Source: Candidatus Odinarchaeia archaeon
Lineage (GTDB): Archaea > Asgardarchaeota > Odinarchaeia > Odinarchaeales > Odinarchaeaceae
Reading direction: 5' to 3'
Length of the DNA stretch: 18,129 nucleotides
Assembly: GCA_029856525.1 (NCBI GenBank)
Contig: JAHQXC010000022.1
Coordinates: forward strand, 1-18,129
Part shown: one piece after another, positions 3,895 to 15,922 of the stretch
Numbering within the stretch: position 1 is the first letter of the stretch
Layout of the letters: every line of letters begins with the position of its first letter
Made by a program: the position numbers and the translations under genes
Notes under the pieces: model-generated
The model's input: the letters and a program-made list of their open reading frames with translations, nothing else
The model's database searches: none
What the model was told of the DNA's origin: nothing

Positions 3895-3934
3895 AATCTA
3901 TCGGAGCTGAATATTAGTGGTGGGGCGGACCGGA

Positions 3935-3960
3935 ATTTCAGATTAGTTTTAAACTAATCT
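3935..3960 (-). other. 26-nt BHB intron at position 59/60 (T-loop) of tRNA-Pro
   Basis: Full BHB: exon stem CCGG/CCGG, central helix UUCA/UGAA, bulges AA|A and AU|U, intron stem GAUUAGUU/AACUAAUC. Confidence 0.92.
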
Positions 3961-3974
3961 TTTGAACCGGTGAT

Positions 3975-4002
3975 CTCCAGTCTGCTCGCTTAAACTGCAA
4001 AT
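3975..4002 (-). other. 28-nt BHB-like intron at position 45/46 (variable region) of tRNA-Pro
   Basis: Central helix CCAG/CUGG, bulges AG|A and AG|A, intron stem UUUGC/GCAGA. The exon-side helix is imperfect (relaxed motif). Excision restores variable region AGAUC. Confidence 0.85.
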
Positions 4003-4091
4003 CTCTGGATCCCAAATCCAGAATCATACCAAGCTAGACTACCGCCCCTTTCTTAGTTGTTTGGAGGCTCGGGGGGGATTTGAACCCCCGA

Positions 4092-4121
4092 TTCGCCAAT
4101 AGGTCTATTCGACGACTATTT
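4092..4121 (-). other. 30-nt BHB-like intron at position 46/47 of tRNA-Thr
   Basis: Central helix CGUC/GGCG, bulges GG|A and AA|U, intron stem AAUAG/CUAUU. Excision gives variable region CGGUC. Confidence 0.85.
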
Positions 4122-4130
4122 CCGACGGAT

Positions 4131-4148
4131 CTCTCGGCTTCAACCGCT
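4131..4148 (-). other. 18-nt canonical 37/38 intron of tRNA-Thr
   Basis: Central helix CUUG/CGAG, bulges UA|A and AG|A, with the anticodon stem as exon helix. Confidence 0.92.
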
Positions 4149-4301
4149 TACAAGTCCGTTGCTCTAGCCGGGCTGAGCCACCGAGCCGTTAATTATTCAT
4201 AATCTATATTCTATTTTGTTATTTTTCAAAAATCAAATATAAAAACTTAATACCGGTTTTATAGATGCGGGTTGAATGTCTTCAAGCAGTTCATCGAGTT
4301 G

Positions 4302-6062: not shown

Positions 6063-6500
6063 GTGGCTTACTTGAGTAAAGGATACAGGGAGCTACCGCA
6101 TACAGCTGACGTTTACCTTGAAGTTTACGCGCCTACTTTAAATGAGGCTTTCGAACAAGCAGGTGTCGCATTATTCGAGGTGATGACCGATATTTCACGC
6201 GTGGATACACGGCTCTCTATGAGCTTCAAAATTGAAGCCGAAGATTTATACTCACTGCTCTTCGAATATATCCGTGAACTTCTATTTTTAGTTGACACCG
6301 AGGAGTGTCTTTTCAGGGATTTCAGGGTTGAAATTAAAAGTGAAAATGAGAAATATATATTAAATGCGACTATAGCCGGGGAGAAAATAGATTTTAATAA
6401 ACACCGGCTTAAAACAGAGATTAAAGCTCCTACATATGCTCAAATGGAAATCATCACATCTGAGAAAGAGGTTATATTAAGATTCGTTGTAGATATATAG
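6063..6500 (+). CDS. Archease (cofactor of RtcB-type tRNA-splicing ligase)
   Basis: N-terminal HTAD, EAFEQAGVALFEVM, EIKAPTY and C-terminal VVDI. Directly abuts the upstream stop; the true start may be the TTG at 6072. Confidence 0.92.
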   Translation: MAYLSKGYRELPHTADVYLEVYAPTLNEAFEQAGVALFEVMTDISRVDTRLSMSFKIEAEDLYSLLFEYIRELLFLVDTEECLFRDFRVEIKSENEKYILNATIAGEKIDFNKHRLKTEIKAPTYAQMEIITSEKEVILRFVVDI

Positions 6501-8650: not shown

Positions 8651-9946
8651 TTAAGATGCAAGCTGCTTGAGAGCCTCTACCGCTGTATCTATCTCGTCGA
8701 AGGTATTATAGTAGTGAAATGAAATCCTAACATTCCCATTATAAGCATCATCTATTCCAAGCCATCGCAAAGCAGGTATCGCGCAATGATATCCGGCTCT
8801 CGTCAGTATCCTCCATTTTTCATCTAAAGCCAGTGATAGGTCGTGTGAACTCCAGCCTTTTAAGTTAAACGTCACCACTCCTGTTTTCAAATCATCCTCC
8901 ATAGGGCCGTATACTTCTAAACCTTTAATTTTACTCATCTCGTTAAGCAGGTATCCTGTTAGCTTCCTCTCAGTTTCATGAATTCTTTTCAAACCTATTC
9001 TAGAAATATATCGAGCAGCCTCCCCTAAACCGATTAAACCTAAAATATTCGGTGAACCTGCATCGAATCTTTTAGAAGGATAATCGCGTCTAAGCTCGTA
9101 ATAATCTTCAGTCACATTTACGATTATCCCCCCTCCTATTTCAATAGGTTCAAGCTCTTCGATAATATCTTTTCTAACATATAATCCTCCAGTACCCGCC
9201 GGTCCTAGAGGTCCTTTATGCCCTGAAAACCCGTAGAAGTCGCATCCTATATCCTCCACGTCTACAGGCATGTGACCTGGGCCTTGAGAGCCGTCTATGT
9301 AGATTAAACACTCAGGGTTGACTTCTCTAACAGCTTTAACTATAGATTTAACATCGTTAACTGTTCCGAAGACATTAGACGCGTGTTGAAACGCTAAAAC
9401 ACGCGTCTTCGACGTGATATTATCTAAAACAGCCTCGGTTGTTATCAAACCGGTTTTAGGGAGATTTTTAATAATTTTGAAAACAGCTTTCTTATAGTAA
9501 GCTAACCTCATCCAAGGTAGTATGTTACTATGATGCTCCACTATCGTTGTCACTATTTCATCCCCTTTCCTCCAATTTATTAAAGGCTTTTTACTTGTCA
9601 ACCTGTGGTTTTCAACTGTTAAAGCAGGGTTTCCTAAAGCGTAAGCTACTATATTCGTTGCCTGTGTGAGATTCCTAGTAAAGATTAGATTTCTCGGATC
9701 GCAGTTAAGTAGTATTCTTGCAACATCACTTCTAGCCTTATCCCACTCATCTGTCACCCGGTTAGCTATAGAATAAGCCCCTCGCTCAATATTCGCGCAA
9801 TACTCTCTAAGATACTCCTCCATTTTCCGGATAACTGGAAGCGGTACAGGTGTAGTAGCAGCGTTATCAAAATAAATATACTCTTTCGTTAAAGGTATAT
9901 CCGCTCTCACCTGCTCAACTGAAAGATAACCGCCGCTCTCATCCAT
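8651..9946 (-). CDS. sufS: Cysteine desulfurase, SufS/CsdA-like (class V PLP enzyme)
   Basis: Motifs YFDNAATT, EHHSNILPW, DGSQGPGH, FSGHKG (PLP lysine) and RAGYHCA (persulfide Cys). Confidence 0.9.
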   Translation of the reverse strand: MDESGGYLSVEQVRADIPLTKEYIYFDNAATTPVPLPVIRKMEEYLREYCANIERGAYSIANRVTDEWDKARSDVARILLNCDPRNLIFTRNLTQATNIVAYALGNPALTVENHRLTSKKPLINWRKGDEIVTTIVEHHSNILPWMRLAYYKKAVFKIIKNLPKTGLITTEAVLDNITSKTRVLAFQHASNVFGTVNDVKSIVKAVREVNPECLIYIDGSQGPGHMPVDVEDIGCDFYGFSGHKGPLGPAGTGGLYVRKDIIEELEPIEIGGGIIVNVTEDYYELRRDYPSKRFDAGSPNILGLIGLGEAARYISRIGLKRIHETERKLTGYLLNEMSKIKGLEVYGPMEDDLKTGVVTFNLKGWSSHDLSLALDEKWRILTRAGYHCAIPALRWLGIDDAYNGNVRISFHYYNTFDEIDTAVEALKQLAS

Positions 9947-10004
9947 AATTTAATCTCATAACTTTTATTACTTATAAAATATTTTAAAAAATGATGGGGA
10001 TTAA

Positions 10005-10223
10005 ATGAGCGAAAGCGACGTTGATATTGTAGCTATTAAAATAATAGAGTTGTTAAAAAAAGCAGGCCGCCCTTTAACAACAAGGCAAATAGAAGAGGAG
10101 ATAAATAAACTAGGTTTAAAATGCCCTGACACCCCTGCCAGATATCTCAACCAGCTTCGTTTAAAAGGAGTGATTAAAGGCGAACTCTCGGTAGGTGAGA
10201 AAAGCTGGATTTGGTTTATATAA
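10005..10223 (+). CDS. Small winged helix-turn-helix-like protein
   Basis: IIELLKKAGRPLTTRQI...CPD..ARYLNQLRLKGVIKG pattern with a C-terminal beta-hairpin (SWIW); GGGA Shine-Dalgarno-like sequence upstream. Confidence 0.7.
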   Translation: MSESDVDIVAIKIIELLKKAGRPLTTRQIEEEINKLGLKCPDTPARYLNQLRLKGVIKGELSVGEKSWIWFI

Positions 10224-14547: not shown

Positions 14548-15192
14548 TTATATACTTAACGCGATTATCTCACTTGTTTCAGGAAGCGTCTCCTTACTGA
14601 TCTCTAAGAAGTTAACTCCGAGACGCCGCGCCTCAGCTTTACCGGCTAAAAACGTGTCAACTGAGGTTAAAGGGAGATTCAACCCGCTTATTTTATAATG
14701 CATGGGTATAGCTATCTTCGGTTTAATATCATTATAAATTTTAGTCGCGCCTGAATGATCTAAAGTATAAGTGCCGCCTACTGGAACGAATAATACGTCA
14801 ACAGGCTTCACAGCTTCCACTAAATCCGAGCCTAAAACATGGCCTAAATCCCCTAAATGAAGAAATCTCACACCATCTATTACGAAAAGATATATAACAT
14901 TAACACCCCGCTGAGCGCCTTTACTAGTATCGTGAAATGTCCTGATACCTTTCACTTGAACGCCTTTAACGTTTTTGTCGCCTACAAACTCTTTAAGAAC
15001 TATCGTATCATCTTTACGGACAAGCGGCAGACCGTCTGCGTGATCGTAATGACTGTGCGTTATTAACACTATATCAGCTTTAGATTGAGGAGGCTTAATC
15101 CCTAAGCTTACACCATCGTGAGGATCAGTTACCACCGTTACACTACTTTTAATTTCAAAACACGCATGCCCCAGCCATTTAACCGTGACCAT
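14548..15192 (-). CDS. Metallo-beta-lactamase-fold hydrolase
   Basis: Motifs WLGHACF, THSHYDH, HLGDLG, VPVGG and IPMHY. Confidence 0.9.
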   Translation of the reverse strand: MVTVKWLGHACFEIKSSVTVVTDPHDGVSLGIKPPQSKADIVLITHSHYDHADGLPLVRKDDTIVLKEFVGDKNVKGVQVKGIRTFHDTSKGAQRGVNVIYLFVIDGVRFLHLGDLGHVLGSDLVEAVKPVDVLFVPVGGTYTLDHSGATKIYNDIKPKIAIPMHYKISGLNLPLTSVDTFLAGKAEARRLGVNFLEISKETLPETSEIIALSI

Positions 15193-15367
15193 TTAAACCA
15201 CCAATAATAATATGAGCTGTACACCTAATAAAACATACGCTTCAACTAATCATTAATAATTTCAGCCCGCATGAAACATAAATTATTTAGCGTAAAGTTA
15301 ATTAACTTATTAAAGTAAAAATTCAAACATTAAACGCCGAGGTGGCTCAGCCTGGTTAGAGCGCCGG

Positions 15368-15382
15368 TTCAGATGAGGCGAA
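15368..15382 (+). other. 15-nt BHB intron at position 30/31 of tRNA-Met
   Basis: Central helix CGCC/GGCG (perfect), bulges GG|U and AA|A, exon helix GAG/CUC, short intron stem UC/GA. Confidence 0.88.
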
Positions 15383-15389
15383 ACTCATA

Positions 15390-15425
15390 ATCTATCTGGT
15401 AAAAAAGGGGTCAGATAGATAGGAT
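15390..15425 (+). other. 36-nt canonical 37/38 intron of tRNA-Met
   Basis: Central helix CUCA/UAGG (one C-A mismatch), bulges UA|A and AU|A, 8-bp intron stem UCUAUCUG/CAGAUAGA. Confidence 0.88.
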
Positions 15426-15432
15426 ATCCGGA

Positions 15433-15455
15433 AACAGGATTCATAAACTGACGGA
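15433..15455 (+). other. About 23-nt intron in the 40/41-44/45 region of tRNA-Met; exact register uncertain
   Basis: A 23-nt excision is required to give a standard AGGUC variable region. The best central helix (UCCG/CGGA) instead predicts 15433-15457. Confidence 0.65.
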
Positions 15456-15470
15456 GGTCGCGGGTTCAAA

Positions 15471-15500
15471 ACCTGAAAGGTGCTCGCCGTCGGGAGGAAA
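15471..15500 (+). other. 30-nt BHB-like intron at position 59/60 of tRNA-Met
   Basis: T stem GCGGG/CCCGC as exon helix, central helix UUCA/AGGA (one A-A mismatch), bulges AA|A and AA|U, intron stem CCUGA/UCGGG. Confidence 0.85.
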
Positions 15501-15573
15501 TCCCGCCCTCGGCACCATTTATAAGCTTTTTCTCCTCTACTCTCTAAAGTTGAAAGGAGTTTACTAAAATCTC

Positions 15574-15840
15574 TTATAATAGGCTCCAATCCCATGCTTT
15601 ATGGCTTCTCTCATAATAGTTTCTCGACTTTTCTTCTTCTCCTTTAAGATGGTATACGTCGCCTAATAGTTTTAGAATAGCTGATATCTCCTTCTTAAAT
15701 TGATTTCTTCCTTTTCTAGCTGTCTCATAATATTTTAAAGCGTCTAGCAGCGCTTTCTCAGCTTCATCCAGTTTTTTAGTAGCATATAGAAGGCAAGCGT
15801 TATCATAGCATTCTTTAGCTGTTTTAACAACATCCTCCAT
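15574..15840 (-). CDS. Small tetratricopeptide-repeat-like protein
   Basis: Helical repeats ACLLYATKKLDEAEKALLDAL and LGDVYHLKGEEEKSRNYYERS. AGGTGA Shine-Dalgarno precedes the ATG at 15840 (track start is GTG 15849). Confidence 0.7.
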   Translation of the reverse strand: MEDVVKTAKECYDNACLLYATKKLDEAEKALLDALKYYETARKGRNQFKKEISAILKLLGDVYHLKGEEEKSRNYYERSHKAWDWSLL

Positions 15841-15922
15841 GCGCGTCACCTGTAGGAGTTAACCTTCTCTTGAAGCAAAGCTTCTAAAAAATTATATTTA
15901 AGTTTTATTCTTTTTTATGATT

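Follow-up and report, generated by a model that had tools for sequence, protein, structure and literature searches.

The window analysed here is a stretch of 18,129 nt, and it contains an elongator tRNA-Met(CAU) gene at 15336-15517 on the forward strand. As read from the window sequence, the gene spans 182 nt, and it is interrupted by four inserts of 15, 36, 23, and 30 nt. The host genome (1.32 Mb) is 93% complete and is in 127 contigs.

Exon 1 (15336-15367, 32 nt) covers tRNA positions 1-30: it supplies the 5' strand of the acceptor stem and the D arm, and it ends 4 nt into the anticodon stem. Intron 1 (15368-15382, 15 nt) follows at site 30/31 and has a canonical BHB. Exon 2 (15383-15389) has just 7 nt, ACUCAUA, and it supplies positions 31-37, including the CAU anticodon. 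Intron 2 (15390-15425, 36 nt) lies at the canonical 37/38 site and is followed by exon 3 (15426-15433, 8 nt, AUCCGGAA), which covers positions 38-45. Intron 3 (15434-15456, 23 nt), whose BHB is relaxed, interrupts the variable loop at 45/46. Exon 4 (15457-15470, 14 nt) corresponds to positions 46-59, that is, what remains of the variable loop, then the T stem's 5' strand and UUCAAA of the T loop. Intron 4 (15471-15500, 30 nt) interrupts the T loop at 59/60. Finally, exon 5 (15501-15517, 17 nt) contains U60, the 3' strands of the T stem and the acceptor stem, A73, and an encoded CCA.

Joining the five exons removes 104 nt and leaves a tRNA of 78 nt that includes the CCA. All of its stems are filled with standard pairs (acceptor 7/7, D 4/4, anticodon 5/5, and T 5/5), so the arithmetic of the first-pass annotation, which had 104 of 182 nt removed to give a fully paired cloverleaf of 78 nt, was borne out when we re-joined the exons. 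The conserved bases are also present: U8, A14, G18G19, the GTTCAAATC T loop, A73, and the CCA. ARAGORN identifies the joined exons as tRNA-Met(cat). When we ran it on splice variants that were generated by brute force, it accepted hundreds of them, many of them sloppy, so the ARAGORN call does not discriminate and is weak support alone. In the unspliced gene, ARAGORN finds no tRNA, and the Rfam tRNA model has no match even at E values of up to 10.

The locus is intergenic; the ORFs on either side of it, 14548-15192 and 15574-15849, are both on the minus strand. Another ORF on the minus strand (15392-15595, 67 codons) covers most of the tRNA gene. This ORF is probably spurious; a gene caller that overlooks the tRNA could annotate it as a gene. 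Upstream, a TATA-like box, TTATTAAA, lies at 15307-15314 (+), and its center is about 26 nt before tRNA position 1. It might be an archaeal promoter, a reading that has to stay conditional because the entire spacer is AT-rich. Downstream, a run of five T at 15527-15531 (+), which is 10 nt behind the CCA, might be an archaeal oligo-T terminator. Both of these elements were read from the sequence.

To compare this gene to its relatives, we used four Odinarchaeum genomes (this one and three congeners, G001-G003, of which G002 is closed, in one contig) and a genome from the sister family (G005). The gene is found in all three congeners at 89-94% identity over its full length. In G005 it is 187 nt long and has all four inserts. 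With the third insert placed at 45/46, none of the 78 exon positions vary among the four Odinarchaeum genomes, while the introns have 11-21 changes in roughly 104-108 columns (11-19% divergence). In other words, the substitutions among these genomes are all inside the proposed introns, which supports the layout independently of any motif. Between G005 and Odinarchaeum, the introns have diverged by about 45% and the exons differ by a single change (A58G); exon 1 is unchanged across all five genomes, and the short exon 2 is invariant as well.

To score BHB motifs, we considered the 3-nt bulges that hold the cuts, the central helix of 4 bp, and the flanking helices, and we compared each score to those of random sites of the same length from the genome. 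The BHB of intron 1 has a perfect central helix, in which exon CGCC pairs with intron GGCG (4/4), as well as 2 inner pairs and 3 outer pairs, and its score is equalled at 1.4e-4 of random sites. Intron 2 has one mismatch in its central helix (3/4; C34 faces A), a hairpin of 9 bp within the intron, and the anticodon stem as the outer helix; its score is equalled at less than 1e-5 of random sites. In G005, the central helix of intron 2 is a perfect 4/4, and in the congener G003, intron 2 has one compensatory change, from A-T to G-C. Intron 4 also has one mismatch in the central helix (3/4), along with 5 inner base pairs and 5 outer base pairs (the T stem), and its score is equalled at 1e-5 of random sites. 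In G005, we found no convincing BHB for intron 4 in any register that yields a T loop of 7 nt. The earlier statement that three of the four introns have clear BHB-type motifs thus holds for introns 1, 2, and 4, whose scores are each equalled at no more than 1e-3 of random sites.

We also compared each intron, with its flanks, to the whole genome using BLAST. This gave only chance-level matches of 11-15 nt, so there is no sign that introns were copied between tRNA genes. We scanned metagenomes for the signature of intron 2, exon 3, and intron 3, and among the matches listed, no locus that we fetched had a tRNA context. We noticed that 15359-15365 in exon 1 (GAGCGCC) can pair with 15479-15485 in the loop of intron 4 (GGUGCUC), which gives 7 bp with one G-U. 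This helix is part of the predicted minimum free energy (MFE) structure of the precursor and is kept in the four congeners; complementarity of such a size is expected by chance about once per ten such genes.

We propose that 15336-15517 is, very probably, a single-copy functional elongator tRNA-Met(CAU) gene with four BHB introns at 30/31, 37/38, 45/46, and 59/60. We infer that it is transcribed, that it is cleaved at exactly these phosphates, and that the introns leave in the order that we describe below.

In the 45/46 register, the relaxed BHB of intron 3 has a central helix of 3/4, 3 inner base pairs (CAG/CUG), no outer helix, and the bulges AA|A and AG|G. Among random sites, 0.8% score this well, and 4% do if a window of ±2 nt is allowed; by itself, the motif is therefore weak and close to chance. 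The first-pass annotation placed all four sites and got 30/31, 37/38, and 59/60 right; for the remaining site, which it placed at about 44/45, 45/46 fits better (it gives the relaxed BHB and identical exons). Similarly, of its two 7-nt exons, ACUCAUA with the anticodon remains, and the other one has 7 nt in the 44/45 register and 8 nt in the 45/46 register. We tried two other registers. At 44/45 there is no BHB (the central helix is 1/4). Cuts at 15432|15433 and 15457|15458 give a perfect 4-bp helix, yet leave a variable loop of 3 nt, and we rejected them by comparison to compact orthologues. In the four congeners, the bases that form the helices of intron 3 are invariant and the loop varies, and with the 45/46 register the mature sequences are identical. 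Furthermore, in G005, a very different sequence gives a central helix of 3/4 and inner pairing of 7/8 in this same register. From these comparisons, intron 3 appears to be better placed at 45/46 than at 44/45.

It could be argued that there are just three true introns, and that the insert of 23 nt in the variable loop stays in the mature tRNA-Met as an enlarged variable arm. This would explain why intron 3 has the weakest BHB of the four, with its imperfect central helix, its missing outer helix, and a score that about 4% of random sites reach within ±2 nt. The motif is also absent from the MFE fold of the partly spliced intermediate. However, the variable loop of compact orthologues is 5 nt. 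The insert ranges from 22 to 31 nt and its loop sequence changes, yet its BHB-helix bases are kept in the four congeners, and the sister-family insert forms a BHB-like fold from a very different sequence. We also know of no class II variable arm that resembles a 3-bp stem with a 10-nt loop, which counts against a retained insert. We consider it very unlikely that the insert is retained.

The spliced tRNA has G1:C72 and an anticodon stem of CCGGA/UCCGG. Archaeal initiator tRNAs are marked by A1:U72 and by three G-C pairs at 29-31:39-41. Given G1:C72 and the CCGGA strand, this is not the initiator.

A CAU anticodon by itself cannot separate Met from Ile2, so we also considered that the gene might encode a tRNA-Ile2(CAU), which would read AUA by means of agmatidine. 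There is a precedent for such a gene with four introns: an Ile2(CAT) gene of Freyarchaeia is tabulated in PMC11291895. But the TiaS family (PF08489) is absent from all six genomes that we searched, which are the four Odinarchaeum genomes (G000-G003, with G002 closed), G005, and the closed genome of Atabeyarchaeia-2; the same search was positive in 4/4 archaeal control genomes. Also, the host genome has a tRNA-Ile(UAU) gene (at about 6163-6310 on the minus strand of contig C78 of G000), with three inserts of its own, in the D loop, at 37/38, and in the variable loop. Since TiaS is absent and AUA is covered by this tRNA-Ile(UAU), the gene in the window, on this indirect evidence, reads Met rather than Ile. 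Throughout the searched Odinarchaeales and Atabeyarchaeia-2, AUA seems to be read by a UAU tRNA and not by an agmatidine-modified tRNA-Ile2, and a CAU tRNA-Ile2 is not expected in the Odinarchaeum host. Furthermore, the spliced sequence is identical at 72 of 78 positions to the Atabeyarchaeia genes that are typed as Met, while it has 62-63 matches in 80-82 aligned columns with the host's own Ile tRNAs. These orthologues were typed as Met by tRNAscan-SE in a published table (PMC11291895). And if this gene did not encode elongator tRNA-Met, the genome would be left with none. Together with the G1:C72 pair and the CCGGA strand, these results agree with the initial identification as elongator Met, and we view the Ile2 reading as highly improbable.

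We looked for a second elongator tRNA-Met, as the first-pass annotation had suggested, and found none. There is no other CAU tRNA among the 30 Rfam tRNA hits in the host genome or among the 30 hits (of 34) that were read in the closed congener G002. Whole-genome structural scans for CAU tRNAs found just this gene and the initiator. As the host genome is 93% complete, an absence from it would be weak alone; the closed congener covers this point.

Could the gene be a decaying relic from which a working tRNA is no longer made? This might account for why standard finders (ARAGORN and the Rfam tRNA model) miss it and why the central helix has a mismatch in three of the four introns. However, a pseudogene is not expected to have zero exon substitutions across four species while its inserts diverge by 11-19%. 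The CCA and every stem are intact, and this is the only elongator Met gene that was found, which also argue against a pseudogene. We see scarcely any chance that the gene is a relic. Another concern is that the assembly could have fused several tRNA genes into a chimera. The window is part of a MAG in 127 contigs, and tRNA-Met-like contigs of other organisms are present in the same metagenomes. But in the likely source sample, a Logan contig of 3288 nt crosses the entire gene, and four other assemblies (one of them a single contig) have the same four-insert architecture, so misassembly, which the first-pass annotation had raised, is ruled out for all practical purposes. The Logan contig (from run X1) has one difference from the window, in a homopolymer: at 15401, within the run of A in the loop of intron 2, it is one A shorter. 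Either the length of the homopolymer is uncertain or the strains differ here.

Having argued that this is a functional tRNA-Met gene with four introns, we consider where the introns came from. Within Odinarchaeales, we found the gene in 5/7 genomes of our collection, and the two genomes without it are 78-82% complete. Outside Odinarchaeales, genome G009 has one insert, at 37/38. The orthologues from Atabeyarchaeia-2 and Baldrarchaeum yapensis have two inserts, at 30/31 and 37/38, and those from Atabeyarchaeia-1 and other Baldrarchaeota have a third, in the T loop. The variable-loop insert is confined to Odinarchaeales: it is missing from the orthologues in Atabeyarchaeia, Baldrarchaeota, and other groups. 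In published tables from tRNAscan-SE, the genes from Atabeyarchaeia-1 and -2 are Met CAT with 3 and 2 introns (PMC11291895), and our counts for these genes agree. Judging from these sequences, three of the introns are common to other Asgard and TACK lineages, and the variable-loop intron is a gain in the lineage of Odinarchaeales. This clean series of one, two, three, and four introns in a single tRNA gene across Asgard lineages should be useful for dating intron gains.

The 30/31 intron is also found farther away. Introns at this site with a GGCGAA-like end that pairs with exon CGCC are present in MAGs that are labelled as Aenigmatarchaeota, Bathyarchaeia, Thermoproteota, and Nitrososphaerota (loci L023-L025 and L040), and two of these loci have the three-site layout of 30/31, 37/38, and T loop. 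The 30/31 site would then be either old or repeatedly reused across archaeal superphyla.

The host genome encodes enzymes that could process this precursor. It has two genes of the EndA family (PF01974), both on the minus strand, at 1429-1995 of contig C56 and at 6774-7337 of contig C61. One paralogue (188 amino acids) is most similar to the EndA chains 3P1Z_B and 3AJV_B (E = 6e-44), from structures of the Aeropyrum pernix heterotetramer. The other (187 amino acids) aligns to the first half of models for fused EndA and weakly to models for the beta subunit. Kaneta et al. 2018 reported that Asgard archaea have an (alpha-beta)2 EndA with an L1 loop, which is linked to the cleavage of non-canonical introns (PMC5829648), and the two paralogues appear to fit this description. 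RtcB is encoded as well. We propose that transcription would give a precursor of about 182 nt, that the two-paralogue EndA would cut out the four introns, and that RtcB would rejoin the exons.

The BHB motifs compete for shared exon bases. GAG of the D stem pairs with C32-C34 to form the outer helix of BHB1, but in BHB2 the bases C32-A35 are needed for the central helix, where they pair with the end of intron 2, so these two helices are mutually exclusive. For its own central helix, BHB3 takes positions 40-43, the 3' strand of the anticodon stem, and this strand is at the same time the outer helix of BHB2. BHB4 is independent of the other motifs. Because of this competition, the introns are probably removed stepwise: introns 1, 3, and 4 would leave first, the anticodon stem would form next, and the 37/38 intron would most likely be last. 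According to ViennaRNA, a precursor fold with BHB1, BHB3, and BHB4 has an energy of -59.4 kcal/mol, versus -68.5 kcal/mol for the MFE structure. As the enforced fold is 9 kcal/mol above the MFE, thermodynamics neither supports nor excludes a fold that is competent for splicing. For the intermediate that retains just intron 2, the MFE structure has the anticodon stem and the intron hairpin. All of these folds are predictions and not evidence for the pathway.

We also speculate, quite tentatively, that the precursor cannot fold as a cloverleaf and that the introns enforce an obligatory order of folding and splicing, through intermediates with exons of 7-8 nt. In the anticodon stem, ACGG from intron 3 would take the place of the 5' strand, and the 3' strand of the D stem would be captured by intron 1. 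These two substitutions would put the primary transcript in an alternative architecture that presents BHB1, BHB3, and BHB4, and the anticodon arm and the 37/38 motif would form only after introns 1, 3, and 4 had been removed. The 45/46 layer would have been added in the ancestor of Odinarchaeales. We think that this stronger idea is more likely to be wrong than right. Regardless, the competing motifs and the exons of 7-8 nt should make this precursor a good in vitro substrate for studying the order of splicing and the specificity of EndA.

The first-pass annotation suggested that four introns would be at or beyond the described maximum for one tRNA gene, which is outdated. As of 2015, up to three introns per archaeal tRNA gene were known (PMC4390854). 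Valentin-Alvarado et al. 2024 included fourth-intron columns in their Supplementary Data 4, and four introns are tabulated for Arg-TCT, Ile2-CAT, and Leu-GAG of Freyarchaeia and for Trp-CCA of Atabeyarchaeia-2 (PMC11291895). A preprint by Goswami et al. 2026 reports up to five introns in one gene and states that tRNAscan-SE misses about 30% of such inserts; its main text has no mentions of Odinarchaeia (10.64898/2026.10.13.758758). So, our gene does not change the known maximum. It resembles these Asgard genes in its phylum, in having short EndA-type introns at both canonical and non-canonical sites, in the count of four, and in that such inserts tend to escape standard annotators. It differs in its class, Odinarchaeia, and in its isoacceptor, as elongator Met has at most three introns in those tables. 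Heavily interrupted Asgard tRNA genes now extend to Odinarchaeia. Furthermore, neither ARAGORN nor the Rfam tRNA model sees the only elongator tRNA-Met that we found in Odinarchaeia, so automatic annotation of these genomes may seem to show that they lack tRNA-Met.

Close comparisons include the orthologous tRNA-Met genes of Atabeyarchaeia-1 (CP147779, 810394-810565, 3 introns) and Atabeyarchaeia-2 (CP147780, 792623-792753, 2 introns). The former shares the sites 30/31, 37/38, and 59/60 with our gene and the latter shares 30/31 and 37/38; unlike our gene, neither has an intron at 45/46. The sequences of their introns are unrelated to those in our gene, except for bases that are forced by pairing with the exons. 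Among Thermoproteales, genes with three introns include tRNA-Glu(UUC) of Pyrobaculum calidifontis and tRNA-Pro(UGG) of P. islandicum (Sugahara et al. 2007; reviewed in PMC4390854). Those genes also have several BHB introns at non-canonical positions and depend on a broad-specificity (alpha-beta)2 EndA, but they are from another phylum, have a maximum of three introns, and encode other tRNA species. In the red alga Cyanidioschyzon merolae, the nuclear tRNA-Ile(UAU) has three introns that interrupt the D region, the 37/38 site, and the T loop (Soma et al. 2013), and RT-PCR showed that the flanking introns are removed before the 37/38 intron (PMC3728597). This matches the order that we would expect from the competing motifs, although the C. 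merolae gene is eukaryotic, has three introns, and had its order of splicing shown by experiment.

Other tRNA genes in this genome are interrupted as well. The initiator tRNA-Met gene lies outside the window, at 9853-10080 (+) of contig C11 of G000, and is 228 nt long (its orthologues are L074-L078). By comparison to the initiator of Atabeyarchaeia-2, it appears to have about five inserts. The D loop would contain two of them, the 37/38 site and the variable loop would have one each, and another, of 60 nt, would lie in or behind the 3' strand of the acceptor stem. The insert of 60 nt is flanked by a CCCCGC repeat, and we found no BHB for it. In the sister family (G004 and G005), the initiator gene is 265 nt and has a further insert in the T loop, for six in all. 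Within the window, tRNA-Pro(UGG) (3918-4048, minus strand) is interrupted in both the variable loop and the T loop, with the T-loop insert at 59/60 as in tRNA-Met; the Rfam model matches just the 5' part of this gene, at 22.5 bits, which is below the cut-off. A tRNA-Thr(UGU) gene (4061-4187, minus strand) has two inserts; the one behind the anticodon has about 20 nt and the one in the variable region about 30 nt. Of the tRNAs in the window, this one alone scores above the Rfam cut-off, at 46.8 bits.
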